Source: an uncultured Chloroflexia bacterium | Lineage (GTDB): Bacteria; Chloroflexota; Limnocylindria; Limnocylindrales; CSP1-4 | Assembly: GCA_963816135.1 (NCBI GenBank) | Contig: CAWFJD010000017.1 | Location: 1,128,128-1,192,127, forward strand | Direction of reading: 5' to 3' | DNA: 64,000 nt | Shown: positions 4,178-59,500 of the stretch, piece by piece | Position numbering within the stretch: the first letter of the stretch is position 1 | Layout of the letters: each line of letters starts with the position of its first letter | Notes under the pieces: model-generated | What the model was told of the DNA's origin: nothing | Seen by the model: only the letters and a program-made list of their open reading frames with translations | Database searches by the model: none | Program-made: the position numbers and the translations under genes

Positions 4178-4451
4178 TCGTTTGCCTTGGATTATTAGGC
4201 AACACGTGCAACTGGCCTAATGAACCGCGGCTCCTGCCTGGTGCCAGGCGCTGTGGGAGCGCTGTCATGGTTAGCACCACGCTCCCAGAGCGTATAACTG
4301 TAGCCGATTCCGAGCATTTCACGCTCAGCGCACAGCGTCTAATTACACGCTGTCCGCTCTAAGGCGTCGAGGCCGAGGACGAAGGTGGGTGTGTGGAATG
4401 GTGGGTTGGCACCACCCCAGGTGACGCGGAAGGACACACGCCGCGCTGCCG

Positions 4452-4964: not shown

Positions 4965-5473
4965 CGCGGATCGCTCCTAACGCCGGCTCGATCGGGGCCT
5001 GCGGACGCACGAGCACGGCTCACCGAGACGATTACCTCGGGTTGCCGCTGGGCCGGCGCCTCCGAGCCGGCCGGACCGCGCAGCGGCTGCTCACGGAGGA
5101 GTAGCGCCGTCACCAAGGCCAGGGCAGCGATCGGAGCTGCAACAAGGAATACCGTGTCGGCGGAACGCACGACGGCGCTGACGAGTCCATCGCGGATTGT
5201 CGGCGGTAACGACCGGATGGCGGCTGGGCTCATCTCGAGGACGCTCGGGTCGAGCTTCCTGCACGTCCCACCCGGCACGAGCTCCGGGATCCAGCGCGCA
5301 AGCTGGCTAGAGAACACCGCTCCATAGAGAGCCACGCCAAGGGTTCCGCCGAGGGCCCTGAAGAAGTTGGCGACGGCGGTCGCTGTGCCGAGGAGTCGAC
5401 GATCGACGGCGTTCTGGAGGGCGACCTGTGGGCGGCCGAGGGCTTCTCTCTGAACCGACGCCTCGACAATCAT
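4961..5473 (-). pseudogene. MFS (DHA2-like) transporter C-terminal fragment with no N-terminal half (gene remnant)
   Basis: From ATG 5473 the product (IVEASVQREALGRPQVALQNAVDRRLLGTATAVANFFRALGGTLGVALYGAVFSS...) matches the last two to three TM helices and cytoplasmic tail of 14-TM MFS exporters. Upstream in-frame sequence is low-complexity, and the CPBP gene stop sits at 5487. The ~330 residues that would normally precede this piece are absent. Confidence 0.5.
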
Positions 5474-5486
5474 CGAACGACCTCCA

Positions 5487-6305
5487 TCAATGCCACCCTG
5501 CCAGCACGTACACGGCGGTGAATAGGACGGTGTTGTGGGCGATGTGGAAGACAATGCCGGGCAGGGTCGAACCCGTCCGCTCGCGAACCCAACCAAGCCC
5601 GAGACCGAGGCCGAAGCCCAGCGGCATAAGGATCGGCAGGATGTGGATGCCGCCAAACAGGGCCGCCGTAGTGAGGATCGTCGGCCAGGCGCCATATCGG
5701 CTCCTGAACCAGCCGAAGAGGGCGCCGCGGAACAGGAGCTCCTCCCCAATCGGGGCAAGAAGGCAGGCGCGGGCTAGGCTCAAGCTGGTCGTAAATGGAT
5801 CGAGTGAGCCCAAGCGGCCGCCGTCGGAGCCGAGCCAGGCGAGCGCGTCAACGAGGACTCCAAACGCGCCAATCGCCGTGTAGACGAGCGCGACGGCTCC
5901 CCAACAGAGCACGCCAGTCGCGACCGCGAGGGCCACATCATTGACCGAGGCGAATCGGATTTGGAGGATGTCCCGAAAGCCACCACTGCGGCCCAGGAAC
6001 AGGTACAGCGATGCAATCAGGAGCGCGTAGACCTCGAACACGCTGATTGCAGTGATCGCCTTAGTGAGTCCTGCGGAAGCCGGCGCGACCGCGCTCGCGG
6101 CAGCGAAGGTTGCAGCGCCGACGACCGCAGAAGTTCCGACCCAGACGACCAGCGCGCCGGCCAGGCGAGCGCCTGGCACGGCACCAATCGACGTTGACGA
6201 CATCACACGCGAGCCTCCGCCTGGCAATCCGACCGCGCCGGGGCTCTCGGACTTGTTACCGAGCACCGCCGCGTCGTTCGTCTGAGTTGTTCTCATGGCG
6301 CCCAC
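5487..6305 (-). CDS. CPBP-family intramembrane metalloprotease (CAAX protease / Abi family)
   Basis: Multi-TM protein with the conserved EELLFRG motif and a FHIAHN-type second motif (IVFHIAHNTVLF). Confidence 0.7.
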   Translation of the reverse strand: MGAMRTTQTNDAAVLGNKSESPGAVGLPGGGSRVMSSTSIGAVPGARLAGALVVWVGTSAVVGAATFAAASAVAPASAGLTKAITAISVFEVYALLIASLYLFLGRSGGFRDILQIRFASVNDVALAVATGVLCWGAVALVYTAIGAFGVLVDALAWLGSDGGRLGSLDPFTTSLSLARACLLAPIGEELLFRGALFGWFRSRYGAWPTILTTAALFGGIHILPILMPLGFGLGLGLGWVRERTGSTLPGIVFHIAHNTVLFTAVYVLAGWH

Positions 6306-6380
6306 AGCCGCCCTCTACCGGCCCGCCGGCGGATTGGGCAAGCTCCTTCGCTGGCCGAGGCCGCTCGATTCCGGGCATCC

Positions 6381-7262
6381 CTACAACTCAGCCACTACGG
6401 GGATGACTTCGCGGCCCATGATCTCGAGCGGCGTGATCCGGTCGACGTTCACTACCCAGCCAAAGACGGTTTGGATCCCCATCCCGCTGAGCCAGCGCAG
6501 ACGCCCAATCAGTTCGCCGACCTTCTCGCCGTCTTCGCCAACATCGAAGCCGAAGGGGGCCGTCTTCTCGATAGCGTGGTAGTCGCGCCGTTCCACCTCG
6601 CAGAGTCGACGGAGCAGCTCGAGCTGGCGCGGGATCTCCGGCGATGGGCGCAGGTTGCAGGCGTCGGCGTAACGCGCCACTAGAGGCAATGTCCGACGTT
6701 CACCCGATCCCGCGATGAGGATCGGCGGATGCGGCCGGCTCAAGCTTTGAGGCGCGTTGAGCGGGTGCGGCATTCGGACATGCTCGCCGAGAAACGGACT
6801 CTCGTCTCCACGCTCACCGTCCCACATCCGAAGGCAGGCCTGCACGGTCTCATCGAGCAAGTCGAAGCGTGTACCGAGCTCCGGGAATGGCAATCCGAGC
6901 CCCTCCGCCTCCTCGGCGTAGTCACCGGCGCCGATCCCGAGCATCGCCCGACCGCCAGACAACACGTCCAGCGTCGTTACCATCTTGGCGAGCAGGCCGG
7001 CGGGTCGATAGGGGACTGCCGTGGCCAGTGCCAGGAGCCGAACACGGTTCGTCCGAGCGGCGATGAAGCCGAGAGTCGTGTATGCCTCGATCTGGCTTTC
7101 GGTCGGCCCGCCCATCAGCGGGTGCTGCCAGACATGGTCGGCCACGTCGATGGCATCGAAGCCCGCTGCCTCGGCCGCCTCGACGATAGCTGCAAGAGTG
7201 GAACCAAGCCTCGAAGGGCCGCCCTCCCACGACGTGGCGGGGATGTGCAGACCGAGTCTCAT
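6381..7262 (-). CDS. LLM-class F420-dependent oxidoreductase
   Basis: 293 aa, luciferase-like TIM-barrel family throughout (MRLGLHIPATSWEGG...GFDAIDVADH...). Its start overlaps the stop of the downstream membrane ORF by ATGA. Confidence 0.8.
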   Translation of the reverse strand: MRLGLHIPATSWEGGPSRLGSTLAAIVEAAEAAGFDAIDVADHVWQHPLMGGPTESQIEAYTTLGFIAARTNRVRLLALATAVPYRPAGLLAKMVTTLDVLSGGRAMLGIGAGDYAEEAEGLGLPFPELGTRFDLLDETVQACLRMWDGERGDESPFLGEHVRMPHPLNAPQSLSRPHPPILIAGSGERRTLPLVARYADACNLRPSPEIPRQLELLRRLCEVERRDYHAIEKTAPFGFDVGEDGEKVGELIGRLRWLSGMGIQTVFGWVVNVDRITPLEIMGREVIPVVAEL

Positions 7263-7862
7263 GATGCCTTCGCCTCCGCGCCGGCGGTCGCGCCTTCACG
7301 CGAGCGACCTGACAGGATTCGACCGGCGACGAAGCCCGTCGCTGCCGCAAAGCCGAGCACGACCAGCGACGGCACGAAGTCCGGCTTGAGCGTCATAAGC
7401 CAAACGATCCCCAACGCGATTCCGACCCGCATGGCATAGAACACAGCGAGCGACCTGTCTCGAACGATGTGCAGGGTCTGCTCATTCAGAAGTCCCTGCG
7501 CCTGGCCTAGTGCTTTGCCGGCCACGGCCATTCGGCTCAGGTTGATCGCCGCGCCGAGGATCGCGATGACAACGAAACCGACGAAGGCTCGCGCCGATCC
7601 ACCCACCCGGACTATCGACATTCGCGGCAAGGTAGATGCCTGGGAGCAGGATCAAGCCCAGCGACGCCGGCCCGAGCATCCGCGTCGGCCGCATCAGGCC
7701 AAGCCAGGCCGCCCTTCGGCGCCGGAGGTCGCGCGACGAATGCCCCAAACGGCGACGCCCTCAATTGCCAACGCAGCGAACATCGCGAGCGCCCCAGTGA
7801 TGTGAAGGAATAGCGCGAGGTTGTAGGCCGAGGCAGCGTCCATGTTCTTGCCCTGAGCGGAT
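7259..7862 (-). CDS. Small integral membrane protein (about 4 TM) interrupted by two apparent 1-nt frameshifts
   Basis: Three consecutive minus-strand frames each give plausible TM segments. They read MDAASAYNLALFLHITGALAMFAALAIEGVAVWGIRRA, then LGPASLGLILLPGIYLAANV, then VGFVVIAILGAAINLSRMAVAG...LGIVWLMTLKPDFVPSLVVLGFAAATGFVAG. No single frame is open across all three. Confidence 0.35.
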
Positions 7863-7966
7863 CTAGGTCGGTCAGGCTATTACACTACTTGGAGCACTGC
7901 AATAGTCGTATCACTCCTATGGTGGCACCAGTTGAAAGACCTGGCTCGTTCCGCTAGACTGCGCCA

Positions 7967-8416
7967 GTGGCCGATCCTTCCAAGCAGAGAACCGAGCTTG
8001 CCGCCGCGATATGGCGACGGATCTTCGACTTCATCGTTGCCACCTCACCCCAGCGCATCGACCTACTCGCCAGCAAAGGACTCACCCCCAATGACAGCCG
8101 GGCGCTCCAGAGCCTGAGCGAGGACCCGGCCGGGCGTCCGATGAGATCGCTGGCCTCAGAGTGGCAGTGCGACGCTTCGACGGCGACCTTTATCGTCGAT
8201 CGGCTGGAGGCCAAGGGCCTGGCCGAGCGGCGACCGCACCCGACGGACCGGCGGGTGAAGCTCGCTGCTCTAACCGAACGCGGAGCCGAGACTCAAGCCG
8301 CCCTCGTCGCCGGCACGTACACCCCACCCCCGGAGCTGCTCGAGTTATCTGACGAAGCTCTCGTGACGCTCTTGCGAGGCGTCGAGCTGCTGCCCAATCT
8401 CGGGGGGACGAGATAA
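7967..8416 (+). CDS. MarR-family transcriptional regulator
   Basis: 149 aa with a winged-helix core (LTPNDSRALQSL...SLASEWQCDASTATFIVDRLEAKGLAERRPHPTDRRVKLAALTERG) typical of MarR. Confidence 0.85.
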   Translation: MADPSKQRTELAAAIWRRIFDFIVATSPQRIDLLASKGLTPNDSRALQSLSEDPAGRPMRSLASEWQCDASTATFIVDRLEAKGLAERRPHPTDRRVKLAALTERGAETQAALVAGTYTPPPELLELSDEALVTLLRGVELLPNLGGTR

Positions 8417-8519
8417 TCCGTAGCCGTCTCCGGATGCTCCAGCTCTGACGCAGGTGTCGATGGCCGCTCTCGTGGCGACAGGAGTGGGCGTATTTTTCGA
8501 CGCGCTGTATGCCTGCTTG

Positions 8520-8849
8520 CTCGGGCTCGGCCCACCGGCCCGACACCCCGTAGTAGTCGGTCATCCCGATGCCCGCCTGTCGCTCCACGACGGCGAACTC
8601 GCCGGTCGCCACGAACTGGTCGGCGAGGCCTGCAAGAGCTGCCGCCTCCGCGTAGCGCTGCCGGTAGGCGGCGAGCACCCGCAGCGCGTCTTCCTCAGAT
8701 TTCCCGCTCCTGTCCCAGCCGGGCCAGTCGAACGCGGCCGCCACGGTCCGCTTCTTCTTGCCGAACTCGACCATCACGCGGATTGAGTTGTCCATCACCC
8801 AACCTCTGCGAAAGATCTCAAGTTGCTCATCATCCCACGGCCCGACCAT
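8520..8849 (-). pseudogene. Truncated paralog of the conserved hypothetical gene at 16007..16702 (N-terminal ~110 aa only)
   Basis: The minus-frame product VMVEFGKKKRTVAAAFDWPGWDRSGKSEEDALRVLAAYRQRYAEAAALAGLADQFVATGEFAVVERQAGIGMTDYYGVSGRWAEPE aligns with residues 5-110 of the 16007 protein (VRVLAESGKKKVVAVAFDWPGWERTGPSEDEARKALEGYRSRYASVAALAGLAAEFAEAGDLRIVERVEG...). Homology then stops, and the reading frame runs into and overlaps the intact MarR gene. Confidence 0.45.
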
Positions 8850-8936: not shown

Positions 8937-9894
8937 TCAGCGTGCGCTTGTGGCCGCCTCGAGCAGGCGGAGCGCATGCGATCGGAGGGCGTCGGCCAGT
9001 TCGTCGGGGGCCCGGATCTCGAACGCCCAGGGCATCGCGGCCAGGAGCCTCGCGGCACCGTCGAGGTTCGCGGCCTGGAAGCGGACGATCGTGGACGAGC
9101 CGGTTTCGCGGAGCTCAGCGATGGTGCCCGGCAGAGTCGCGCGCACGTCCGCGGCCGACGCGGCGGCGACGACCTGGATCTCCCATCCCCACGGGACGCG
9201 CGCAAGCGTCTGCTCAACGAACGCGGTCGCGTCGAAGCCGACAGGGACCTGGGCGGGCAGGCCGAGTTGCGCGATCGCGGTGATGCGGTCGACACGAAAC
9301 GTACGAAGATCCTTCTTGACCTGATCGAAGGCGGCCAGGTACCACCGGCCCCGGATCACGACCAACCCGTAGGGATCGATGTCCCGGCTCGTCGCCTCTC
9401 CATCGCGCGCCGAGTAGCCGATGCGGATGCGGCGTTGAGCAGTCATGGCGCGAGCGAGCGAGAGCAGGGTAACTGCCGCTACGGCCTCACGCTCCGGACC
9501 CGAGTCCGCGAAGGCGAGGGACGCCTCCAGGTGCGCGATGTCCTCGCTGAGTCGAGATGGAAGCACGCGCCGGATCTTCGCCAGCGCCGCCTCAATGGCC
9601 GGTGCGGAAAGGCCTAACCCGGAGCGCTGGGCCGCCCGGAGGGCCAGGGTAACCGCTGTCGCCTCGTCGTCAGTCAGCATCAGCGGTGGGAGCCGATAGC
9701 CCGGGCGCAGCCGATAGCCGCCGTGCCGGCCGAGCCTCGAATTCGACCGGGATCCCGAGGTCCTGAAGTCGCACCACATCACGACGGAGCATGCGCAGGT
9801 CGATCTCGAGCTGCCGGGCAAGCTCCGGGCCCGTGGCCCATTCGCGGCCCTGAAGCAGGTGCAGTAGCGAGAGAACACGCGACGACGCTGGCAT
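8937..9894 (-). CDS. WYL-domain transcriptional regulator (HTH, WYL, C-terminal extension), interrupted by one 1-nt frame shift near 9735
   Basis: The HTH part (MPASSRVLSLLHLLQGREWATGPELARQLEIDLRMLRRDVVRLQDLGIPVE) is in one frame and ends at stop 9670. The remainder (SRLGRHGGYRLRPGYRLPPLMLTDDEATAVTLAL...DIDPYGLVVIRGRWYLAAFD...) is in the +1 frame of the 8937..9923 ORF. The join falls at the GAATTC around 9735. Confidence 0.7.
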
Positions 9895-24202: not shown

Positions 24203-25852
24203 CTAGAAGGCCCGGTTCGCGACCAATCGAGCGCCCCAATCCGCCGCCACGGCCGGGAACTCGTTACGGACCTGCGGCCAGCCATGGGTGTAGGCCGAGT
24301 CGATCGCCTTGTACCTGTAGCCGTCGGCCTTGAGCAGCTGCTCGAAGTTGGCGGCCTCCGGGCCGTAGAACGGCTGGCTCGGGTCGGCGACGACGACCAG
24401 ATAAAGGGAGACTCGAACCTGCGGGGCGAGCGTCGAGATCAGGCGCGCCGGCGAGTAGGCGGCAAGAGCAGCCGGCGTAACGAAAGGTCGGGCGGAGTTG
24501 GAATTCGCCGATCCGGCCTCGTAGTAGCCGGAGAACGAGATGGATGTCCCGAAGACGTCAGGGTGTCGAAGAGCGAGCATCGCGGCGCAGAAGCCACCCG
24601 CCGACATGCCCATGATGCCGCGTCCGGCGGGCCGGGCAATCGTCCGGTAATGGGAATCGACATACTCGGGGACGGTCTTAGATATGAACGTTTCCATCTT
24701 CATCTGCCCGTTCGTGGAATTCGCGCACTCGGAATCCGGGAAGGGCGCGCCCCACTCGTCGATGAAGACGACGATCGAGGCCGGCATGGCTCCCGAATCG
24801 ATGAGCGAGTCGAGCGCCGCGGTGGCTCCGGTGCCTTTGTCCCACAACGTGAAGCCGGTGGGTGCCTCATAGAGGACCGGATACGAACGGCTGCCCGCCG
24901 GGTCGTAGCCGGGCGGCGTGTACACCGAGAAATCGGCCACGGTGCGAGTGCCGCCGGTCCAGGGCGCGGGAACGTCGTAGTTGACGACCCGGCCGGCTCC
25001 GGAAGGCCGCCAGGCCAGCCAAGGCCTGCTGCCGCCCGCGGAGCTCCCGGGGGCTGTCGCGCTCCCCGGAGTCGACGTCGAACCGGTGGTCGGACCCGCG
25101 CTCGGGTCAGTTGTGGAACCCACGGTCGGGCCGGTAGTCGCGGTGGCTCCCCCACCTCCGTCGCTGGGCCTGCTCGCCGCTGAAGACGGTGCGCCACCCG
25201 ATAGCGGAATCCGCTCCACGCCGCCGAGCATCAGCGCGTCCGGCGAGAGGTTGACCATGTCTCCGAACGCCGGGACGGTCACGACGAGAAGGATGAGGAC
25301 CAGCACGGCCACGATGGGCCGGCGCAGGCTGGCGACCCGGTCGCGGCCCCCGCCGAGGAGTAGGCCCAGATCCGAGCCCGTCGCGATGAGGGCCGGCCGA
25401 AGGGCCACGGCCAGTGTCGCTCCGGCCGCCGCGGCGAGGGTCCCGATCACGGCCAGCGTGGCCAGCGTAACGATCCAGCCGCCCGGCGAGAAAGATCCCA
25501 GCGCGCCCGTGGCAGCCAGCGCGTTCTGCGTTTCCGCCACGAACGTCTGGAGGTACAGGGCCGCGACGCCCGCGATCCCCAGCAGCGTGGCAAATCGGGT
25601 CCGCGGTGCCGCAAGGGCCGCCATGGCCGCGACGACGGCGCCCACGACGAGAGCCGTGATCAGCTGGGCGCGGTCCGGATCGAAGCCCATGACGACGAGC
25701 GCCACGTCCGACGACTCGACGGTACCGGAAACCACCGCTCCGACGACGACGACGGCCGCGAGCAGGATGCCTGCCAGCGTCGACGGCGAAAAGGTGGACG
25801 AGCGCGCGTCTCGACGGCGATCGGGGTTGGGCCGCCAGCTCGCCTGGCTCAC
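24203..25852 (-). CDS. Membrane-anchored esterase (esterase-D / Ag85-like alpha/beta hydrolase) with a Pro/Gly/Thr-rich linker
   Basis: The C-terminal ~300 aa read YPVLYEAPTGF...GIMGMSAGGFCAAMLALRHPDVFGTSISFSG... (GxSxG nucleophile), a putative-esterase family fold. The N-terminus has about five TM helices. The inferred GTG start at 25852 overlaps the stop (25849) of the upstream DUF2156 gene (GTGA). Confidence 0.7.
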   Translation of the reverse strand: MSQASWRPNPDRRRDARSSTFSPSTLAGILLAAVVVVGAVVSGTVESSDVALVVMGFDPDRAQLITALVVGAVVAAMAALAAPRTRFATLLGIAGVAALYLQTFVAETQNALAATGALGSFSPGGWIVTLATLAVIGTLAAAAGATLAVALRPALIATGSDLGLLLGGGRDRVASLRRPIVAVLVLILLVVTVPAFGDMVNLSPDALMLGGVERIPLSGGAPSSAASRPSDGGGGATATTGPTVGSTTDPSAGPTTGSTSTPGSATAPGSSAGGSRPWLAWRPSGAGRVVNYDVPAPWTGGTRTVADFSVYTPPGYDPAGSRSYPVLYEAPTGFTLWDKGTGATAALDSLIDSGAMPASIVVFIDEWGAPFPDSECANSTNGQMKMETFISKTVPEYVDSHYRTIARPAGRGIMGMSAGGFCAAMLALRHPDVFGTSISFSGYYEAGSANSNSARPFVTPAALAAYSPARLISTLAPQVRVSLYLVVVADPSQPFYGPEAANFEQLLKADGYRYKAIDSAYTHGWPQVRNEFPAVAADWGARLVANRAF

Positions 25853-28614: not shown

Positions 28615-29673
28615 CTACGAGATGGCGATCATCCGCTCCAGGGCCTGTCGGGCGCGGCCGGCGACATCTTCCGGCACGGAGATCTCGAACTGGTCCAGCG
28701 CCAGCGAGTCGCGCAGCTTCTCGAGCGTGGTCAGCTTCATGTACTGGCAGATCGCCTCGCGGTTCACCGGCACGAAACGCTTGCCCGGTGCCTTGAGCGC
28801 GAGCCGGTGGAGGATGCCGATTTCGGTCGCGATGAGGAATGCCGGCGCGGCCGAACGCTCCGCGTAGGTGACCATGCCCTCGGTCGAGAGGACGTGGACG
28901 TCTTCACCCGCGGCGGCAGCGGCATCGATGACCTGGCTCGTGCAGCCGCACTCCGGGTGGATCAGAAGCTCGGCGCCGGGCTCCGCGCGATGCCACTCCT
29001 CCACGTCCGCCGGCCGGATGCCCGCGTGGACGTGGCACTCGCCAAGCCAGAGGATCAGCTTGCGGCCGGTTACTCGCCGGAGCCACATTCCCAGGAACAG
29101 GTCCGGCAGGAAGAGGATTTCGCGGTCGGCGGGAATGGCCTCGATGACGCCGCGGGCGTTGCCGGAAGTGCAGCAGTAGTCGCTCTCGGCCTTGACGGCG
29201 GCGCTCGTGTTCACGTACGAAACCACGACCGCGCCCGGATGCTCGGCCTTCCAGGCCCGGAGCTGATCCACGCTGATCGAGTCGGCGAGCGAGCAGCCGG
29301 CGGCCAGGTCCGGGAGGAGAACGCGCTTCGAGGGCGAGAGGATCTTGGCGGTTTCGGCCATGAACGCGACGCCGCAGAACACGATCGTGGACTGGCGGGC
29401 GGACGCGGCGACGCGGGAGAGCATCAGGGAGTCGCCCACGTGATCCGCCACGTCCTGGATTTCCGGCCGCTCGTAGGAATGGGCCAGGATGACGGCGTCG
29501 CGCTCGGCCGCAAGGCGGCGAATCTCGGCCTGGAGCTCGGGGAAGGTCGCGGGATCTCCCGCGGGCGGGATGGCCGTCGAGCGGGCGGCCTCCAGGCGCG
29601 CGAGCTGGCCGGCCGAGACGTCGACGGAGGACGAAGCGGTCGATGACGCCGAGGCCGAATGTTGGTCGGTCAC
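28615..29673 (-). CDS. nadA: Quinolinate synthase NadA
   Basis: Full-length match to NadA (AVILAHSYERPEIQDVADHVGDSLMLSR...FMAETAKILSP...SYVNTSAAVKA...CTSGNA...GECHVHAG...HPECGC...). The GTG start at 29673, preceded by GAGGT, overlaps the nadC stop (GTGA). Confidence 0.85.
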   Translation of the reverse strand: MTDQHSASASSTASSSVDVSAGQLARLEAARSTAIPPAGDPATFPELQAEIRRLAAERDAVILAHSYERPEIQDVADHVGDSLMLSRVAASARQSTIVFCGVAFMAETAKILSPSKRVLLPDLAAGCSLADSISVDQLRAWKAEHPGAVVVSYVNTSAAVKAESDYCCTSGNARGVIEAIPADREILFLPDLFLGMWLRRVTGRKLILWLGECHVHAGIRPADVEEWHRAEPGAELLIHPECGCTSQVIDAAAAAGEDVHVLSTEGMVTYAERSAAPAFLIATEIGILHRLALKAPGKRFVPVNREAICQYMKLTTLEKLRDSLALDQFEISVPEDVAGRARQALERMIAIS

Positions 29674-30603
29674 CCGATTACCTCGAGCGAGACGTCGAGC
29701 GCCTTGACCGAATGCGTGAGCGCCCCGAGCGAGACGAAGTCGACGCCGGTCTGGCCGACCGCGCGAAGGTTGTCGAGCGTGATGCCGCCGGAGGCTTCGG
29801 TTTCGACCCGGCCGCCGACGATCTCGACCGCGGCGCGCAGCATCTCGACGCTCATGTTGTCGAGCAGTATCCGGTCGACCCCGGCTTCGAGCGCTTCGCG
29901 GACCTCGTCGAGCGTTTCGGCCTCGACTTCGAGACGCAGCTGTGGCGCGATGTGCGCGAAGGCGGGCGACCGCCGGAGCGATGCCGCCGGCGAGGCGAAG
30001 GTGGTTGTCCTTGACGAGGAGCGCCTCGCCGAGGCTCATCCGGTGGTTCGTGCCGCCGCCGCACCGGACCGCGTACTTCTCGAGCTCGCGCAGACCGGGA
30101 GTGGTCTTGCGAGTGTCGAGCAGCGTGGCGCCCGTCCCTTCGAGTTCGGCGACGCATCGGGCGGTCAGCGTTGCGATGCCGCAGAGGCGGCCGAGGATGT
30201 TCAACGCCGTCCGCTCGCCCGCGAGAACGGCTCGGGCGGGACCTGTGATGCGGGCAATCTCGGCGGGAACATGGTCCACTCGCTCGCCGTCCTGGACCTC
30301 GGCCGTGATCGTGACCGCGGGATCGAGCGCGGCGAACACGGCCCGGACGACCGGCAGGCCGCAGATCACTCCGGGTTCCTTGACCAGAAGAGAGGTGCGG
30401 GCGATGGCCTGGGCCTCGAACAGGCCTTCTGAAGTGGGGTCGCCCGCCGCCAGGTCCTCGGCGAGGGCCAGGGCCACGACCCGCTCCACGGCCTGCGGGT
30501 CGGGCGGGCGGACGAGGCCGGGAGTGACGGCGGCTGCGGCGTCTGCTGCGGCTGCGGCGGCCGCCGCGGCGGCGTTGAAGGAGTCCACGAGTTCGCCAGA
30601 CAT
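29670..30603 (-). CDS. nadC: Nicotinate-nucleotide pyrophosphorylase (quinolinate phosphoribosyltransferase) NadC, with one apparent 1-nt frameshift near 29950-29990
   Basis: The N-terminus (DPTSEGLF...LLVKEPGVICGL...LAGERTALNILGRLCGIATLT...TRKTTPGLRELEKYAVRCGGGTNHRMSLGEALLVKDNHLRLAGGIAPAVARLRAH) is in the frame starting at 30603. The rest (IAPQLRLEVEAETLDEVREALEAGVDRILLDNMSVEMLRAAVEIVGGRVETEASGGITLDNLRAVGQTGVDFVSLGALTHSVKALDVSLEV) is in the frame ending at stop 29670. Confidence 0.8.
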
Positions 30604-32077
30604 CAGGACCAGTGCTCCAGGGAGAGTTGCTTACCCGGCCGGAGGACGAAATGGCCCTCGAAGGCCGGATCGGGGGCGGGGGCGTCGATACGGTAATGGA
30701 CGCCGCGACTCTCGCGTCGGGCCAGGGCGAACGTGGCTACGAGCGCGGCAACGGGGTCCGCGACGCAGGCGAGATCCGCGAGAGCCAGAGGGTCGCGCAT
30801 GACGCCGGCCTCACGCCAAACCTGGTCGCGGAGCTCGTTCGAGACGACGCGCTCGTGGGCGCGGGTGTGGCCGGGGCCGGTGCCGTGGCCGTGGCCGGCC
30901 GTGGCCGTGGCCGGGGCCGCAGACTTCGCCGCCTGGCCCAGCGCCGCCAGGTCGTTCGCCTGCGCGAACCGGGGCCGACTCGTCGAGCGCCGCCAGGGCC
31001 GCGCGCCTGCCGAAGACCAGGCATTCGAGGAGCGAGTTGGAAGCGAGCCGGTTGGCTCCGTGGACGCCGGTCGCGGCGCATTCGCCCGGCGGCGTACAAA
31101 CGCGGAATGTCCGTCCGGCCGTCGAGGTCCGTGACGATGCCGCCGATCGTGTAGTGGGCCGCCGGCGAAACGGGCACCGGAGCGCGGGCGGGGTCGTAGC
31201 CGGAGCGTTCGATCTCCGCCATCAGGCCCGGGAAACGGCCTCGGTCGATTGCCCGCAGATCCAGGAACACCCGGCCCTGGCGAACCATCGCCCGGGCAAC
31301 CTCGTCGCGGGGCGCCAGCTCGTCCACGAAACGCTCGCCCGCCGCGTCGAGGAGCGTGGCGCCCTCGCCTCGGAGGGCCTCGGTCAGGAGCAGCCGCGAG
31401 CCTTCCAGCACCGTCGGATGGAATTGCATGAACTCCATGTCCGCGACGGCCGCGCCGGCACGGACCGCCAGCGCGATCGCGTCCCCGATCTGGCCCATCG
31501 GGTTGGTGGATCGAGCCCAGAGCGCGGCGGCTCCGCCCATCGCGAGGACGGTGGCGCGGGACCGGATCGTTCCGGTGGCGGTCACGACGCCGAGACACTG
31601 CCCGCCTTCCACCCACAGGCCTCGGACGTCGGTCTCCTGCGTGATCGCGATCCGCTCGTCGCGAACCGCCCGTCGCTCGAGCAGGCTCGTGACCGCCCAG
31701 CCCGTGACGGCCCCCTCCACGCTCGAGACGCGCCGGCGCGAGTGGCCGCCTTCGAGGCTGAGCTCGGGATCGAACGGCACGCCGAACGCGATGAGCTCGC
31801 GAACCCGCTCCGGCCCTTCTTCGACGAGGACGTGGACGGCGCTCGGCCGGCACAGGTCCCGCCCCGCCCGCTCCGTGTCGATCTGGTGGAGCGCCGTGGT
31901 GTCGTCGTCGCCCATCGTGGCCGCGATCCCGCCCTGGGCATGCCAGCTCGAGGAGTCGGGGGCGTGGCCCTTGGTCACCATCAGAACGGACGCGCCCTGG
32001 TCCGCGGCGGTCAGCGCGGCGGTGAGTCCGGCCGCGCCGGAACCGACGACGAGGACGTCGGGAATGTTGGAGGTCAC
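30603..32077 (-). CDS. nadB: L-aspartate oxidase NadB, with two apparent 1-nt frameshifts (about 31085 and about 30990)
   Basis: The FAD-binding N-terminus ([22 protein letters not shown]...) is in frame 1 up to ...RLYAAG. The next segment [38 protein letters not shown] is in a second frame. The C-terminus (...[12 protein letters not shown]...[15 protein letters not shown]...[14 protein letters not shown]...) is in a third frame. Both shifts fall in homopolymer runs (ccGGGcg and gCCCCg). The nadB stop overlaps the nadC start (ATGA). Confidence 0.8.
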
Positions 32078-32078
32078 C

Positions 32079-33804
32079 TCAGCGCTCCCGGCGCAGCGAC
32101 ACGGCTCGCCGGTAGCTCGCGATGTACTGCTCGGCCGGGCCCGCTTCCCACGACCAATCGATCGACATTCCGCGATCGAGGAGCGCGGCCCACTCGGGGC
32201 CTCCGGCGCGGTAGCGGCGAATCGCCCGCCGGCACGCTTCGACGAGGGCTGCCGGCGTGTCGGCGGAGTGGACGAAGCCCGTCCCGTCCTCGGGCCGATC
32301 GTCGACGTCGACGACCGTGTCGGCGAGACCGCCGGTCCGGTGGACGATCGGCGGCGTCCCGTAGCGCATGGCGATCATCTGGCCCTGGCCGCACGGCTCG
32401 AATCGCGACGGCATGACGAAGAAGTCCGAGCCCGCGTAGATGCGCCGTGCCAGTGCCCGGTCGAACTTCTCGATGACGGCGACGGACGGTCGGATGGGCG
32501 GCGGCGACTTCGCGAAGGCTCGCCACGAGCTTGCGATCGCCGGTCCCGAGAGCGACGACCCGGGCGCCCATGGCCACGAGCTCCGGGGCCGCGCTGGCCA
32601 GGAGATCGAAGCCCTTCTGCGGATCGAGCCGGCCGACCATGCCCAGCAGCGGACCGTCCGAGTCGAGGTCGAAGCCGAGCTCGGAGAGCAGCGCCCGACG
32701 GCACTCGGCCTTGCCTGCCGGCTCCGTCCGGGAATAGCGGGCCGGCAGCGCGTCGTCCGTCTCGGGATCCCAGATGGCCATGTCCAGGCCGTTGAGTATC
32801 CCGCCGAAACGGTGGCCAAGGCCGCGAAGGACGCCATCCATGCCCATGCCGTTCGCGGGCTCGAGGATCTCGGCGGCATATCCGGGGCTGACCGTGTTGG
32901 AAAGCTCGGCTCGAGTCACGCCTTCGCGAAGGAGCAGGAGTGCCGTCGGCTCCGGGCTTCATCGCCTGCGCGAGCTCGTCCGGGAACGCCATGCCGGCGG
33001 CCTGGTCCCGACTCAGCCAGCCCTGATACGCGAGGTTGTGGACCGTGGCCATGATCGCGGCCCGCGAAATCAGCGGATAGGCCTCGTAGGCGACGTCGCG
33101 AAGGACCACGGTTGGCATGGCCTGCCAGTCGTGAAGGTGGATCACGTCGACTGGGCGTTCGTCGAGGAGCAGCGCTTCGATCGCGGCCCGGCACAGCAGC
33201 CCGAATCGCCAGCCATTGTCCGGATAGTCCCCCGCCGGCCCGCCGTAGTAGTCGTCGCGATCGAACGCGGGCGCGTGGTCGATGAGGCGGACGCGGTAGC
33301 CGCGCGCTTCGAACTCGACCAGCTTGACGTGGGTGATGCCCGAGGGCGCCAGCGGATCCGGCACCGCCAGCGGCCGGATCGTCGCGTTGCCGGGCACGAC
33401 CATGCCCCGGTACTTGGGCAGGAACACGTCCACCGGCGGCTCGATCTCGCCGAGCGTCTCTGGCCTTCGCTCCCGACGCTCACGACGGCGCCCGTTCCGA
33501 GCCAGACCTGCGACTGGGGCAGCCGGGCCACGCCCGCCGGTGGCGGCTCGAGGTTCTCTTCGTCGGAGGTGTCGACGGGCGAAATTTGCGCCGGTCTTTT
33601 TGGGGCGGCCTTGCCCTGCTTGCCGCCGCCCGGCCGGGCAGTGGACGCGGCGGCTATGGTCGTGGCCCCGGTGGCTCTACTCGTGGCTGCGGTGCCGGGT
33701 CCGGTCGCGGCGCCGACGGCTCGCGCCAGGGCGTCCACCACGTCGCCGAGGCCCCCCGTCTTTGCCCACGGCTCGCACTCGGCGCTTATGCAGACGACCC
33801 GCAT
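32079..33804 (-). CDS. glgA: Glycogen (starch) synthase GlgA (GT5), with at least three apparent frameshifts and a ~85-aa low-complexity insertion after the KTGGL motif
   Basis: ATG 33804 gives MRVVCISAECEPWAKTGGLGDVVDALARAVG (a KTGGL-type ADP-glucose glycogen synthase N-terminus). The later segments VDVFLPKYRG...HDWQ...HNLAYQG, then VSPGYAAEI...GILNGLDMAIWDPETD...GMVGRLDPQKGFDLL...LGTGD, then VAVIEKFDRALARRIYAGSDFFVMPSRFEPCGQGQMIAMRYGTPPIVHRTGGLADTV lie in different minus-strand frames. Confidence 0.7.
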
Positions 33805-34557
33805 TCTCGGCTCCCTTGACGGTCCGATCGCAGACCTCGACGCCGTATTGACTCGGCCGCCCTCCGAGCGGGCTTTTGAAGCCTCGACGTGGACACTCAT
33901 GGTAAGCGTCGGGCCGGATCGCTGGCGAATGCGGGCGACACGGGCCATCGGGCTGCGGCGCGGGGGCCGGCGATGCGGGAGCGGCCGCCGCGAGCCGAGG
34001 CCGGCTAACCTCGCCGCCTCGACGCAGCGGCCCGAGACTTGCCCTGGCCCGATGCGAGGAGACATTATCGTCAACCGATGGAAGTGGTGCTAGCGAAAAA
34101 TTGGCATCGGCCCAGGCCCGGAACCAGCCCCTGTTGGGGGTAGAAGGAACCCGCGAAGGGCCCGATTTCCGGGCTCCAGCCCGTGCACCGGAGGCACGCT
34201 GGCGGCGCGGGCGGGCTCGGAGGCACAATGGTTTCTCGGTATCACCACCTGGGTTGGTATCTCGGAGAAACGGTGGGGCGAGGCGGCGGCGCGCGATGAG
34301 CCCCCTGGCAGAGACTGGCCTTACGCGCGGCGCGCGACAGTCCCGCGCCGCTCCTGCGCCACGGCGCCGCCACGCCCCACGCCCACGCCCGCGGCCGGAG
34401 GTCATGCGCCGCGCTGCGCACGCCACCTGCGCCGCCACTACGCTCCGCCCGCGCCGCCACGACGCGGCACCGCACGCCCCGTCCGACTAAACGACGGCTA
34501 AACGGCTGGTAGACCGGTACCCAGGCTCGAACAGCCCGTCGGGTTCCGTCCGCTATC

Positions 34558-36759
34558 ATGGCGCGGAATATGGACCGAGCCGTGCAGGTTCCGACTCTCC
34601 CGGGCGCGTCTTTCCGGCTGCCCCCGCAACTCGAAGGGCTGCGCCGCCTTTCGTACAACATGTGGTGGGCCTGGAACCCGCGAGCCCGGGCGCTCTTCAG
34701 CCGTATCGATGGCCTGTCATGGTCTCGATACCGCAACCCGGTGGAGGTCCTCTCGCAGCCGATCGCCTGGTCGGAGCTGCTCGACGACCCGGCCTTCATG
34801 GCCGAGTACACCCAGATCCTCGCCGAGTTCGACCGGTACATGGCCGGCGGCCGCGAGCACTGGTTCAACCGTGAGTACGGTGGGGCGCTCTCCAAACCCA
34901 TCGCCTATTTCTGCGCCGAGTACGGCTTCCACGAATCGCTCGGCATCTATTCGGGCGGTCTCGGAGTCCTGGCAGGCGACCACATCAAGTCCGCGAGCGA
35001 CATGGCCATGCCGTTTGTCGGCGTGGGCCTGCTCTACAAGCACGGGTATTTCCGCCAGACGATCGACGCCGACGGCCACCAGGAGCACGCCTACCCGGAC
35101 TACGACCTCGCCGAGCTGCCGATCCTGCGGGTCCTTGGACCAGACGGTGAGCCGCTGACGGTCTCGGTCGAGTTGCCGGGACGAGACCTGTTCGCCGCCG
35201 TGTGGCTCGTCCAGGTTGGCCGCGTACCCGTCCTGCTGATGGATACGGACATCCCGGACAACGCGGAATCGGACCGGCCGGTCACCCAGATCCTGTACGT
35301 CCGCGGCCGCGAGATGCGCCTCCACCAGGAGCTCGTCCTGGGCGCCGGCGGTGTCCGAGCTCTCAAGGCCCTCGGCATCGACCCCGCCGTCTGGCACCTC
35401 AACGAAGGCCACTCCGCGTTCCTCCTCGTCGAGCGAACGAGGGCGCTCGTGGCCAAGGGCGTGCCACTCGAAGAAGCCCTGGATCGGGTCCGATCCAACT
35501 CCGTCTTCACCATCCACACCCCGGTCTCAGCCGGTAACGAGCGCTTCGACGCGGACCTGGTTCGCCGGGTCGCCGGGCCTCTCTACGAGGGCGACGGCCG
35601 AAAAGGCACCGGCGGCGTGCCGATGGATCGCGTCCTGGAGCTCGCCCGCGGCGTGGACGGCGACACTCGCTCGCTCGACATGACGGCCCTCTCGCTGCGC
35701 ATGTCGATGGCGGCCAACGCCGTGAGCAAGCTGCACAGCGTCACGGCCAACAACACCTGGCAGGGTCTGGGCAACAAGCAGATCCTCGCCGTCACGAACG
35801 GCGTCCACATGCCCACCTGGGTCGGCCAGCCGATGCGCTATCTGTTCGAGCGCCATCTCGGCGCCGAGCTCGACAACGTCGACGCCCGCGACGGCGCGGG
35901 CGCCTTCTGGGAGCGGACGGACCAGATCCCGGACGTGGACCTCTGGGAAGCGCACCAGCGCCAGAAGCTCGAACTGATGATCTTCGCCCGCAACCGGCTG
36001 CGCCACCAGTTCGCCCGCCACGGCGAATCGCCGAACACGCTCGAAGAACTCGAAGACGTGCTCGACGTCGGCACGCTGACCATCGGCTTCGCCCGCCGGT
36101 TCGCGACCTACAAGCGGGCCGCGCTCATCTTCTCGGACATGGATCGCCTCGCCCGGCTGCTCTGGGACAAGGACCGGCCCGTCCAGATCATCTTCGCCGG
36201 CAAGGCCCATCCCGCCGATCGACCCGGCCAGGGCGTGATCCAGGAGATCTTCGCCCGGTCGCGTTCGCCGCAGCTGCGCGGTCGAGTCTTCATGCTCGAG
36301 GACTACGACATGCGCGTCGCCCGGTTCATGGTCCAGGGCGTGGACGTCTGGCTCAACAACCCGCGCCGCCCCCTGGAGGCGTCGGGGACCAGCGGCATGA
36401 AGGCCTCGGCCAACGGAGTCGCCAACCTGTCGGTCCTCGACGGCTGGTGGGACGAGGGCTGGGTCGGCGACAACGGCTGGGCCATCGGCGGCCGCGAGAC
36501 GAACCCCGACGAAGGCGCTCAGGACTACAACGACGCCCAGGATCTCTATCGCCTCCTCGAGCAGGAAGTCGTGCCGCTCTACTACAACCGAACCGAGGAC
36601 GACGTGCCCGAGGGCTGGACGGCAGAGATGCGCCGCTCCATCGGCAGCACGCTCTGGCGGTTCTCCACGGTTCGGATGCTCCACGAATACGTCGAGTGGA
36701 TGTACATGCCCGCCGCCGGAGTCCAGCCGAAGAAGCCTTCAGGCGTCCCCGGCCGGTAG
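34558..36759 (+). CDS. glgP: Alpha-glucan phosphorylase (GlgP, GT35, short alpha-glucan-family type)
   Basis: 733 aa, intact frame. Reads MARNMDRAVQVPTLPG...LSYNMWWAWNPRARALF...FCAEYGFHESLGIYSGGLGVLAGDHIKSASD...GTSGMKASANGVANLSVLDGWWDEGW, diagnostic for the alpha-glucan phosphorylase family. Confidence 0.85.
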   Translation: MARNMDRAVQVPTLPGASFRLPPQLEGLRRLSYNMWWAWNPRARALFSRIDGLSWSRYRNPVEVLSQPIAWSELLDDPAFMAEYTQILAEFDRYMAGGREHWFNREYGGALSKPIAYFCAEYGFHESLGIYSGGLGVLAGDHIKSASDMAMPFVGVGLLYKHGYFRQTIDADGHQEHAYPDYDLAELPILRVLGPDGEPLTVSVELPGRDLFAAVWLVQVGRVPVLLMDTDIPDNAESDRPVTQILYVRGREMRLHQELVLGAGGVRALKALGIDPAVWHLNEGHSAFLLVERTRALVAKGVPLEEALDRVRSNSVFTIHTPVSAGNERFDADLVRRVAGPLYEGDGRKGTGGVPMDRVLELARGVDGDTRSLDMTALSLRMSMAANAVSKLHSVTANNTWQGLGNKQILAVTNGVHMPTWVGQPMRYLFERHLGAELDNVDARDGAGAFWERTDQIPDVDLWEAHQRQKLELMIFARNRLRHQFARHGESPNTLEELEDVLDVGTLTIGFARRFATYKRAALIFSDMDRLARLLWDKDRPVQIIFAGKAHPADRPGQGVIQEIFARSRSPQLRGRVFMLEDYDMRVARFMVQGVDVWLNNPRRPLEASGTSGMKASANGVANLSVLDGWWDEGWVGDNGWAIGGRETNPDEGAQDYNDAQDLYRLLEQEVVPLYYNRTEDDVPEGWTAEMRRSIGSTLWRFSTVRMLHEYVEWMYMPAAGVQPKKPSGVPGR

Positions 36760-56533: not shown

Positions 56534-59500
56534 CTACTTCAGGAAGTATCCGGTGACGTCGAAGACGAGATCCGTGGTCGCGCCCGACGGACCCATGTAG
56601 GTTGCTGTCAGCACACCTCCAGGGCCAAGGGCGACGGACAGGCCGTTGCCCTTGGATTGACCGCCCAGGAAGTTGACCGTCGAGGTGCCGGGCGAGGCTT
56701 CGGCGACCGGGCCCAGGTAGACGGCCCAGCCCGACTTGTCGTTGACGACCGTGACGTTGCCGGTGACCGCGAGAAGCCCATCGGGGAGGGCGGCCTGTCG
56801 AGCTATCGGGAAGGTGCTCGGACTGTTGGCCAGCAGGCAGCTCGGCAGACCCAAGTGGGCTCGCGTGTCCAGCAGCCGAGTTGGCGCTATCGGCACGAAG
56901 GCCGAGCCCGACATGTCGGCCGTATAGAAGCCCGTGACGTCGAAGACGAGATCGGTTTTCGCGCCGGCGGGTCCCATGTACGTCGCGCACAGCCGTCCCG
57001 CGGAGTCGAGCGAAACGCTCAGGTTGTTGCCGGCAACCTGCCCCGACGTGAAGTTCACAGCCGAGGTCGATGGTTTGCTCGTGGAGACCGGCCCGAGATA
57101 GACCGCCCAGGCCGCCGACGGATTTACCACCGTTACGTTGCCGGTGACCGCCTTCGCCTCCAGGGGAAGTCCGTTCCGACCGGCCACCGAGAAGCACGCG
57201 GGCGTGTTAGCCGAGAGTCTCGCCGGGAGACCGATCGCGTGCCGCGTATCCAGCGAGCGCACAGGATCGATCGGGTGATAAGTCTGGCCGCTGGCGTCCG
57301 TGGCGTAGAAACCGGTGACGTCGAAGACGAGGTGGGTCGTCGCCCCGGCCGGGCCCATGTAGGTCGCCGACAGCGTTCCATGGCTGGACAGGGCGACGGT
57401 CAGGCCATTGCCCGCCGTCTGGTTGCCGACGAAGTTGATGGTCGAGGCCGGCGGATGGGCGATTGGATCAGGCCCGAGGTAGGCCGCCCAGGGGGCCGAC
57501 GGACTGACCACGGTGAGGTTCCCGGTGACCGCGATCGCCTTGTCCGGAATGCCGCTCCGGCCGGTGATCTGGAACGTCTTCGGGCGTGTTAGCCACCAAC
57601 TTGCCCGACAGCCCGTTGCCGGATCTGGTGTCGAGGAGCCGGACAGGGTTGATGGGGTGATACGTAGACGAACCGGCGGGCAACGAGATGACACCACCGA
57701 CGGAGTTCGAGGGCGCGGAGGCCGGGCCCCAACCCACGGCGTTGCCAGCCTGAACCGTGAAGGTGTACGCCGTGTTCGCGGCGAGGCCCGTTGCCGTGCA
57801 ATTCAGGGCACCGGTCGTGGTGCATGTCTTGCCGGCCGGCGAACTCGTAACCGAGTAGCTCGTGATCGCGCTGCCGCCGTCTGAAGCGGGCGCGGACCAG
57901 CTTACGGTCGCCCCGCCGCTGCCGAGAACTGCCGTGACACCGGTTGGGGCACCCGGCACGGTCATCGTCGCGCTGATGGTGACCGTTACCGTGCCCGTGG
58001 CCGTCCCGCTTTTGCCGTCCGAGACCGTGTAGGAGAACGAGTCCGACCCCACGTATCCCGACTGCGGCGTGAACCTGATCTTTCCCTTATCCGTGCCACT
58101 CCCGACGATTACGACAGTCCCGTGATCGCCACTCGAGACCGCCGTGACGCTCAGGGTGTCGCCGTCCGGATCGCTGTCATTGGCGAGCAGCGTTGCCGGC
58201 GCGATGAGGAGTGCCGTGTTCACGAGCGTGCTCGCCGCGTCGTCGACCGCCACCGGCGGATGATTTGGAGTCACGGTGATCGAAACGGTGGCCGTGTTGC
58301 TCTGAAGGCTGGCGTCGCTGGCCACGTAGGTGAACGAGTCCGAGCCGGAGAAGCCGGTGGCTGGAACATAGTTGATCGTGCCGTTGACGACGGACGCCGT
58401 GCCGTGTGACGGCTGAGTCACGAGCGTGGCCGTCAGGCTGTCTCCGTCGGCGTCGGTATCGTTGTCGAGGACGCGGATGGTGACCGACGATCCCTGGGCC
58501 GTGGTAGCCGAGTCGTCGACCGCGATGGGAGCATGGTTGACCGTAGCAACCGTGACCGTCACGGAGCCCGTGGCCGTCCCGCCCAGGCCGTCAGACACGG
58601 TGTAGCTGAACGAGGCGGGGCCCAGGTACGCAGCCTCCGGGGTGAACAGGATCTTGCCCAGGTCGGCGCCGCTGGCGACGATTTCGACCGTGCCGTGGAC
58701 GGGGCTCGAGACCCCCGCGACTGCCAGGACATCACCATCGGGGTCGGTGTCGTTGGCGAGTAGTGTCGCAGGCGCGATCAGGAGCGGCGTGTCGATGACG
58801 GTCGTTGCCAGGTCGTTACCCGCCACCGGCGGATCGTTGACCGGAGTGACCGTGATCGTGAAAGACTGAGTCGGGCTCGCGTCTACCCCGCCGCCCGCGG
58901 TTCCGCCGCTGTCGACGAGATGGAGGACGAGCGTGGCCGATCCGTTGGCGTTGGGGGCCGGCGTGAAGCTCAGGGTCCCAGTAGGGTCAACGGCAGGGCC
59001 GGCGCTGAAGAGTGCGCCGTTCGTGTTCGAGTCGATCACGAACGAGAGGTTCTGGCTCGCCTCGTCGGCAGGACCCGCGCTCATGCCCGTGGCCCAGCCC
59101 AGGAGTGAAGCCGGACCCGAATCCTCGGCGACGGTCTGGTCCGCACCCTTAGCGAACGAGGGCGGGTCGTTGACCGGCGTGACCGTGATCGTCACGGTGG
59201 CCGTGTTGCTTGGAAGGCTGCCGTCGCTCGCCTGGTACGTGAACGAGTCGGCGCCGTTGAAGTTGGCCGCCGGGGTGTAGGCGAAGATCCCGTTGCTCAA
59301 GAGGTTGCCGGTGCCGTGCGTTGGACCGCTCACGAGAATGGCGGTCAGGCTGTCGCCGTCGGCGTCGGTGTCGTTGGCGAGGACGTGGATGGCGACCGAC
59401 CCGTCCTCGGCCGTCGTGGCGGAGTCGTTGACCGCGACCGGGGCATGGTCGACCGGCGCCGATGGCGTGACGGCTCCGGACGGGTCCGATTCGGGTCCGT

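Follow-up and report, generated by a model that had tools for sequence, protein, structure and literature searches.

The 64,000-nucleotide stretch of DNA analyzed here (the window) belongs to a contig of 1,428,169 bp, on which its truncated gene call P0127 is recorded in NCBI/ENA, and carries a glgA-nadB-nadC-nadA operon, with the following genes:

32074..33804, minus strand, glgA (glycogen synthase), in four frame segments with three 1-nt shifts
30603..32077, minus strand, nadB (L-aspartate oxidase), with two +1 shifts
29670..30603, minus strand, nadC (quinolinate phosphoribosyltransferase), with one +1 shift
28615..29673, minus strand, nadA (quinolinate synthase), intact in a single frame

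The preliminary description of this DNA had reported that GlgA, NadB, and NadC are recovered at full length only by hopping between reading frames. The shifts were mapped over the window by tblastn with the intact orthologues of a related locus, L001, by frameshift-aware protein-to-DNA alignment, and by a GC3 frame plot and a codon-usage Viterbi segmentation, and the frame hops were confirmed. The GTG start of nadB overlaps the stop of glgA, and the GTG start of nadA overlaps the stop of nadC (GTGA). As written in the window, glgA has no single ORF, and the shifted frame of nadC reads on into nadA to give a spurious fused ORF of 662 residues. The frameshift-aware alignment showed no in-frame stop codons in glgA, nadB, or nadC, and there are no unique in-frame indels within the conserved blocks of these shifted genes. 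The glgP and deaminase genes that flank the operon are intact.

With 1-base corrections, full-length GlgA, NadB, and NadC are obtained, which match their family models end to end. Corrected GlgA belongs to TIGR02095 with 451.9 bits (cut-off 328.45), covering positions 36–476 of 477 in one stretch, and has, after the N-terminal KTGGL motif, a low-complexity insert of about 55 residues that is specific to the lineage. Corrected NadC belongs to TIGR00078 with 308.6 bits (cut-off 198.4; positions 2–269 of 269), and the intact ORF of NadA belongs to NF006878 with 390.2 bits (cut-off 294). Corrected NadB matches positions 4–489 of 489 in TIGR00551 with 404.8 bits, which is under the curated equivalog cut-off of 452.75. 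However, the NadB proteins of intact relatives (P0001, P0002, and L001) likewise score only 392–399 bits. Thus, the score below the cut-off reflects the clade as a whole rather than any decay.

The shift sites in the operon are listed below, with motifs written on the gene strand and a slash or square brackets at the junction or extra base:

33458..33465, minus strand, glgA shift 1, −1 in GGC-CA-GAG
32940..32943, minus strand, glgA shift 2, +1 in GAC GGC [A] CTC, outside any run
32487..32490, minus strand, glgA shift 3, +1 within ACCG (HP-T-SVAV), with runs of at most 2
31084..31087, minus strand, nadB shift 1, +1 in GGG/C
30850..30975, minus strand, nadB shift 2, +1 at some position within a variable linker
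29949..29955, minus strand, nadC shift, +1 within GCACATC, with no two identical adjacent bases

The closest relative that covers the operon, L166 (about 81% nucleotide identity), reads a CCC codon at glgA shift 1, and this lesion is possibly a loss from CCC to CC, judging from the sequence. At glgA shift 2, the same relative has GGC CTG. Three glgA shifts had been claimed, and this number stands; the middle one had been put at 32920, while the outer two lie at about 33460 and 32490, and not at 33500 and about 32650 as first thought. The nadB shift ascribed to a GGG near 31085 is indeed present at nadB shift 1, where it may be either GG to GGG or an inserted C; relatives carry GGG or GGC, then GAR. 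The linker with nadB shift 2 is 26 codons longer than that of L001 and contains GCCACG-type repeats. The best candidate for this site, from the coding signal only, is a gene-strand CCCC run, which is located at 30971–30974 rather than near 30990 as had been stated.

Further 1-nt shifts, again mostly +1, are seen in unrelated genes of the window:

9723..9738, minus strand, WYL-domain regulator, +1 between the HTH_11 and WYL parts, with runs of at most 2
57581..57584, minus strand, giant surface protein, +1 in gene-strand CCC/G (ANTP/KTFQ)
7707..7710, minus strand, small membrane protein, a lone A lost relative to L161 and L162
7581..7583, minus strand, small membrane protein, G added (CTTC[G]TCGG) outside any run, relative to L161 and L162
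8393..8395, plus strand, MarR regulator (7967–8416), CC to CCC, shifting the last 8 codons
6308..6313, minus strand, C added, interrupting what is an intact G5 run in the related contig L161

The shifts that had been reported near 9735 in the WYL regulator, near 57590 in the surface protein, and in the small membrane protein were all found. After correction, the WYL regulator matches HTH_11 over 1–55 of 55. Toward its C-terminus, the surface protein has three repeats of about 115 residues each, and its shift falls in the first of them; the small membrane protein is DUF2269-like, with 194 residues when intact. The MarR C-terminus and the 6308–6313 site are additional to the shifts listed earlier. 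Correction of MarR restores LLPISGGRD.P and the stop, as in L161 and L162. The 6308–6313 site is of uncertain coding status, as it may lie within the N-terminal extension of an Rce1-like gene or just upstream. The Viterbi census raised two other possible shifts, which were rejected: near 18150 there is a separate 211-residue gene after a normal stop, and at 24998–25213 there is a Ser/Thr/Gly/Pro-rich linker within one continuous ORF. This census undercounts, as it missed shifts close to gene ends (8393 and 6310).

The shifts are patchy, at about 6.3–9.8 kb and 29.9–33.5 kb, with one site at 57.6 kb. GC content was discarded as a cause of the patches, since the value of 0.65 in one patch is the lowest of the window and that of 0.73 in the other is the highest. 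No shared junction motif, either methylation-related or slippery, was found beyond a generic GC-rich context. The 13 indels are all in or beside minus-strand genes except for the MarR site, which is not significant, as the independent gene clusters number no more than four or five.

The preliminary description had attributed the shifts to homopolymer errors, with both resolved nadB junctions in short homopolymers. The latter is loosely true of both nadB sites, but it is not general. If runs had been over- or under-counted in the classical way, every junction would be expected to fall in a run. The GGG at nadB shift 1, the CCCC near nadB shift 2, and the CCC at the surface protein and MarR sites fit this expectation, and two differences from L161 are at G5 runs (6310 and 4417), although neither is a simple length change. 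However, at least six of the 13 indels are outside any run (glgA shift 2, nadC, WYL, 7582, 7709, and 6310), and 10 of the 13 are insertions. Indels from this type of error are typically in runs of 4 nt or more, while the run lengths at the junctions show at most one of 13 in such a run (only nadB shift 2 could qualify). Of the 408 runs of at least 4 nt in the window, 79 have at least 5 nt, and all but possibly one of the 408 appear correctly sized. Furthermore, the indel contexts match a simulation of random single-base insertion, in which 51% of insertions are non-duplicative, 19% yield runs of at least 3, and 5% yield runs of at least 4. Since 44% of random 16-nt intervals contain a run of at least 3, being near a short run is uninformative. 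We consider homopolymer length miscalling a very unlikely origin of these shifts.

The operon was compared with 14 related loci that carry the cluster, all from independent assemblies (L001, L081–L091, L115, and L166). Every copy of an operon gene held by these loci is intact and in a single frame. No same-species copy of the operon was found in one scan each of the genome and metagenome contig collections, where the best relatives have about 82% NadB identity. Look-ups by exact protein sequence for GlgP, the fused nadC-nadA ORF, the nadB ORF, the deaminase, NadA, and P0127 gave no match. Similarly, a search with a 122-residue NadB query gave no same-species fragments over both nadB junctions, and the best match with full coverage was 66% identical.

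A much closer comparison is provided by L161, an independent contig from SRR32799306 that aligns with positions 4375–8487 of the window at 96.9% identity, with 121 substitutions and five 1-nt indels. The L161 genes in this region are intact. A second assembly, L162, aligns at three of the five indel sites (7581–7583, 7707–7710, and 8393–8395), and at these it agrees with L161 against the window, showing that the three indels are private to this assembly; for the operon, the comparators have at most about 81% identity. When the substitutions are polarized with L162, 37 are unique to the window and 46 to L161, while the 1-nt indels at the three sites number three in the window and none in L161. 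The 1.2 kb that holds these three frame-breaking indels has 24 window-unique and 29 L161-unique substitutions. Thus, the window has frame-breaking indels without the accompanying neutral substitutions. Neutral substitutions usually outnumber indels by 3–10 to one, so about 9–30 extra substitutions would be expected for three indels.

Selective constraint was examined at residues that are invariant in the clade. The fraction altered is 3.2% in glgA, 2.6% in nadB, and 4.6% in nadC, compared with 2.9% in nadA, 1.9% in glgP, and 2.4% in the deaminase; pooled, these tests, which have limited power for the operon, give 22/680 in the shifted genes and 19/862 in the intact neighbors. The pairwise identities are equal, so the shifted genes of the window do not have a longer branch. 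The invariant sites, the pairwise identities, and the substitution comparison with L161 all show that constraint is not relaxed. Nor is the lesion spectrum mixed, as there are 1-nt indels only and no stops.

We suggest that the shifts are very probably an assembly artifact of a non-homopolymer kind, and not real gene decay. For the six operon sites, this is argued by analogy with the 4.4–8.5 kb patch, together with the constraint tests of limited power. The 1.43-Mb length of the contig is indirect evidence of a long-read assembly. Single-base consensus errors in this assembly would have produced the frame shifts, by a process close to random single-base insertion, with fewer deletions, rather than by miscalling of homopolymer lengths. 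These errors would have survived consensus or polishing in patches, which may be places of locally poor consensus, where depth was low, polishing failed, or several strains were collapsed together. The organism then most likely keeps an intact, translationally coupled glgA-nadB-nadC-nadA operon, like all of its relatives. The preliminary description had also judged error to be likelier than decay, and this judgment holds, given the exclusive occurrence of 1-nt indels, constraint like that of the neighbors, the agreement of L161 with L162, and the absence of a substitution excess.

Could the indels nevertheless be real? The glgA-nadBCA unit might be silenced or dispensable, for example through salvage of environmental NAD, and now be gathering frameshifts as a set of very recent pseudogenes, with the WYL, MarR, membrane, and surface genes as further true pseudogenes. 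As decay of a silenced operon would predict, the densest patch coincides exactly with one operon between intact neighbors, and the number of shifts roughly follows gene length (3, 2, 1, and 0 for 1.7, 1.5, 0.9, and 1.05 kb). The correctly sized homopolymers elsewhere imply an otherwise accurate consensus, and insertions outside runs are unlike the error signatures of PacBio in high-GC genomes or of nanopore (PMC8574707, PMC9262707); these points count against the error reading. However, the genes show unrelaxed constraint, with no multi-base or in-frame lesions, and they are intact in all of the relatives that carry them. Furthermore, spontaneous indels in bacteria arise mostly by slippage in runs and are usually deletion-biased, whereas most of these are insertions, several of them non-duplicative. 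The absence of a substitution excess around three frame-breaking indels is also against decay, and with six or seven of about 55 genes disrupted, the pseudogene load would be very high for a free-living bacterium. Overall, we regard genuine recent pseudogenes as unlikely. True multi-hit pseudogenes are known from reductively evolving bacteria such as Mycobacterium leprae, and the window resembles these in having conserved biosynthetic genes with several frameshifts beside intact neighbors. Real decayed genes, however, also have stop codons, larger deletions, raised nonsynonymous change, and lost codon bias, none of which is seen in the window genes.

In a more specific form of this proposal, a free-living Limnocylindria-type member of the Chloroflexota would just have lost de novo NAD and glycogen synthesis by decay of glgA-nadBCA, driven by clustered non-slippage +1 insertions, for instance from localized error-prone repair synthesis, before substitutions accumulated; we consider this quite improbable. 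Alternatively, the split genes might be expressed by programmed recoding, either ribosomal frameshifting or transcriptional slippage. Nothing beyond the recoverability of full-length products speaks for it, and it would have to operate at six sites in three genes and at more in unrelated genes, with no slippery motif shared by the junctions. Moreover, the sites are conserved in 0 of 14 relatives, whose proteins are encoded in one frame, so programmed recoding is effectively refuted and is hardly conceivable here.

Fragmentation of genes by indels is well documented in long-read assemblies, especially in low-coverage bins (PMC9262707, PMC8574707), and it is measured by IDEEL-type tests (Sereika et al. 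2022, PMC9262707; ARAMIS, PMC8574707). The window is similar in that 1-base indels break up conserved genes, leaving neighboring ORFs in different frames, with several shifts possible per gene, on a very long contig, in genes that are intact in other assemblies. However, the published errors are centered on homopolymers, as G/C deletions in runs of 4–6 for PacBio in high-GC bacteria (PMC8574707) and as homopolymer indels for nanopore (PMC9262707). Those of the window are mostly insertions, mostly outside runs, with long runs unaffected, and their distribution is patchy, not uniform over the genome.

The main importance of these results is for data hygiene. At face value, the organism would be without de novo NAD or glycogen synthesis, and six or seven of about 55 genes would count as "pseudogenes"; any metabolic reconstruction, prediction of auxotrophy, or pseudogene count made for this genome would then be wrong. 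The earlier caution over every pseudogene in the genome stands. Since the errors also occur outside homopolymers, most of them would escape homopolymer-aware fixes or filters, and since they are patchy, one region free of errors is a poor guide to its neighbor. The genome should be interpreted only after polishing with accurate reads or after a homology-guided correction that allows for frameshifts.

A mosaic consensus of collapsed alleles or strains can also give false frameshifts. An allele-specific assembly of Trypanosoma brucei is reported as an example of apparent frameshifts of this origin (PMC8445201). A collapsed-strain consensus would explain both the patchiness of the window and its insertions outside runs. 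In several cases, the extra base can be read as two third-position alleles standing side by side (GGG/C, ACC/G, CCC/G, and GGC/A). It is a speculation that the extra bases are strain variants at third codon positions of which both alleles were retained; this is compatible with four to six sites, and the same reading suits about two thirds of random insertions as well.

The glgA-nad cluster occupies the interval 28615-33804 of the window, which has 68% G+C overall, and has four members:

32074-33804, minus strand: glgA
30603-32077, minus strand: nadB
29670-30603, minus strand: nadC
28615-29673, minus strand: nadA

Stop and start codons overlap as GTGA at glgA/nadB and nadC/nadA, and glgP (34558-36759) is intact and divergent from the cluster. 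A GC3 frame plot and a Viterbi segmentation of codon usage agree that the coding phase changes within glgA, nadB, and nadC. The window was compared by tblastn and frameshift-aware alignment with the proteins of L001, the best relative that the genome collection offered, a syntenic Chloroflexota MAG contig of 74-84% nucleotide identity in which glgA, nadB, nadC, and nadA are each one ORF. The result was three shifts for glgA and two for nadB, with a single one in nadC; nadA had none, and the frameshift-aware alignment showed no in-frame stop codons in the four genes. Full-length GlgA, NadB, and NadC are regained by one-base edits. The frame hops of the preliminary description are thus present, with small changes of coordinate: its third glgA junction, placed near 32650, is at 32487-32490, and its nadB C-run, placed near 30990, is at 30971-30974. 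Narrowed using the codons of relatives, the junctions are as follows (sequences on the gene strand):

glgA-1, 33458-33465: -1, GGC-CA-GAG; CCC to CC possible
glgA-2, 32940-32943: +1, GAC GGC [A] CTC; no run
glgA-3, 32487-32490: +1, within ACCG
nadB-1, 31084-31087: +1, GGG/C; GG to GGG or an inserted C
nadB-2, 30850-30975: +1, somewhere in a variable linker; best candidate CCCC at 30971-30974
nadC, 29949-29955: +1, within GCACATC; no two identical neighbours

The shifted nadC frame continues into the nadA frame, giving a spurious 662-aa NadC-NadA 'fusion' ORF (28615-30603) that gene callers could annotate as a bifunctional protein. Directly after its N-terminal KTGGL motif, GlgA has a low-complexity insert (~33540-33710) of some 55 residues, rich in Ala, Thr, Gly, and Pro; at this position inserts that differ in sequence occur in the related loci L166, L083, and L084, and L001 has none. 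The NadB linker (30850-30960) is 26 codons longer than that of L001, is made of GCCACG/GCCACGGCC-type repeats, and is unrelated in sequence to the linker of L166.

The 1-nt shifts reported in the WYL regulator and the giant surface protein were also found, as +1 at 9723-9738 and +1 at 57581-57584 (in CCC/G); the corrected WYL regulator matches HTH_11 over 1-55/55, followed by WYL and WCX domains. Two further census candidates were rejected, that at ~18150 being a separate gene and that at 24998-25213 a low-complexity linker within one ORF. The shifts are patchy, with 4-5 in 6.3-9.8 kb, 6 in 29.9-33.5 kb, and 1 at 57.6 kb; shifts close to the ends of genes escape the census, which makes these totals lower bounds. 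No internal breaks were seen in ~45 kb of other coding sequence, including ORFs of 595-1182 aa, and G+C content did not explain the patches. The C-terminus of the surface protein (1463 aa) has, after fn3 and cadherin-like repeats, three tandem modules of ~115 aa (56534-57640; YHPI.PVR.LDTR ... AVTGN.TVV ... YLGP ... DVTGY), for which no Pfam match was found.

A protein search with the reconstructed small membrane protein as the query gave two matches of importance: P0127, the window's own truncated gene call (120 aa, recorded on a 1,428,169-bp NCBI/ENA contig), and P0121, an orthologue that is intact at 194 aa and lies on the Logan contig L161. Window 4375-8487 is 96.9% identical to L161, with 121 substitutions and five 1-nt indels over 4.1 kb:

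8393-8395: +C (CC to CCC) in the MarR regulator; last 8 codons shifted, correction gives back the conserved C-terminus
7707-7710: -A, a lone A, in the small membrane protein
7581-7583: +G, CTTC[G]TCGG, in the small membrane protein
6308-6313: +C, inside a G5 run
4417: complex -1, intergenic

The intact L161 genes encode 151, 194, and 296 aa. At the three indel sites where it aligns, L162, a second independent assembly (JGI, 89-95% identity), shares the L161 state and not that of the window. Polarised with L162, 37 substitutions are unique to the window and 46 to L161, while the indels at the three sites are 3 and 0; the window lineage therefore has about one frame-breaking indel per kb without an excess of substitutions. 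Real decay usually brings several neutral substitutions per indel. For the 1.2-kb MarR-membrane stretch, decay would be expected to add ~9-30 substitutions, and no excess is seen (24 in the window vs 29 in L161). The small membrane gene (7250-7750) diverges from L161 by 8-9%, vs ~2% in the flanks, and this stretch coincides with two of the indels; since both lineages contribute evenly to the differences, this is a naturally variable gene rather than a region of substitution errors. At 6308-6313 and ~4417 the differences lie at G5 runs without a simple change of length (GGGGG vs GGGCGG; GGTGGGGGT vs GGGGTGGT), and may represent a distinct error mode. A 219-aa ORF overlapping the MarR gene (8190-8849, minus strand) has a plausible N-terminal part (MVGPWDDEQLEIFRRGW...) and then degenerates to Arg-rich sequence; a further frameshift may be hidden there.

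The preliminary description had assigned the shifts to homopolymers, and this mechanism does not fit. Insertions make up 10/13 indels. Six or more are not part of any run (glgA-2, nadC, WYL, 7582, 7709, 6310), as many as five touch only short runs of 2-3 nt, and nadB-2 is the only one possibly in a run of 4, in a window with 408 runs of ≥4 nt and 79 of ≥5 nt. The observed contexts match simulated random single-base insertions, of which 51% are non-duplicative, 19% make a run of ≥3, and 5% a run of ≥4; a run of ≥3 is present in 44% of random 16-nt intervals. Neither published signature resembles these indels: PacBio errors in high-GC bacteria consist of G/C deletions in 4-6-nt runs, with >70-99% of the errors in homopolymers (PMC8574707), and nanopore consensus errors, which are worse where bins have less than ~40-fold depth, are indels in homopolymers (PMC9262707).

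The corrected GlgA (451.9 bits vs a cut-off of 328) and NadC (308.6 vs 198), and NadA (390 vs 294), give end-to-end NCBIfam matches, as does the corrected NadB, whose 404.8 bits are under the 452.75 cut-off but typical of the clade, since intact relatives score 392-399. Residues invariant among relatives deviate, conservatively in most cases, at 3.2% in corrected GlgA, 2.6% in NadB, and 4.6% in NadC, compared with 2.9%, 1.9%, and 2.4% in the intact NadA, GlgP, and deaminase. Pairwise identities showed no lengthened window branch, and conserved blocks of the operon proteins had no unique in-frame indels. With comparators 20-25% diverged, the power of these constraint tests is modest; they exclude old decay but are compatible with very recent decay of the operon, which we consider improbable as the origin of its six sites. 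Programmed recoding was rejected, as the sites are many, share no motif, and are not conserved. The window's indels without substitution excess relative to L161, together with the single-frame genes of relatives, support the earlier view that these are errors rather than pseudogenes. Consensus errors private to this assembly, from a process that is not homopolymer-specific, are the best explanation and very probably the true one; they might stem from polishing that failed, from depth that was low locally, or from a strain mix collapsed into one consensus. The frame shifts are an artefact of practical weight for annotation and not a biological discovery.

The cluster occurs in 14 related loci (L001, L081-L091, L115, L166), with identical gene order wherever the locus is long enough, and in 14/14 each gene present is in a single frame. 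The metagenome assemblies behind these loci are all independent, and several of the contig names are in the style of MEGAHIT or IDBA. The operon's closest relative, L166 (~81% nucleotide identity), has intact glgA (566 aa), nadB (471 aa), and nadC (299 aa); a same-species copy was not found in any of the searched collections. Names on the NadB matches place the lineage in 'Candidatus Limnocylindrales'. The order glgA-nadB-nadC-nadA, the overlap of stop and start codons, and the divergent glgP upstream are shared by the window (28615-36759), L001, L083-L086, L089, and L166, an arrangement conserved in these Limnocylindria-like relatives; it is unusual for glycogen synthase to share what looks like a single operon with the genes of de novo NAD synthesis. 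Many NadB fragments in the protein database, each spanning just 100-200 aa, come from ENA/NCBI contigs of 0.27-1.0 Mb (P0163, P0165, P0169, P0201, P0230, P0252, P0260, and P0268), which hints that nadB is often split by frameshifts where related organisms are represented by very long contigs, presumably from long reads.
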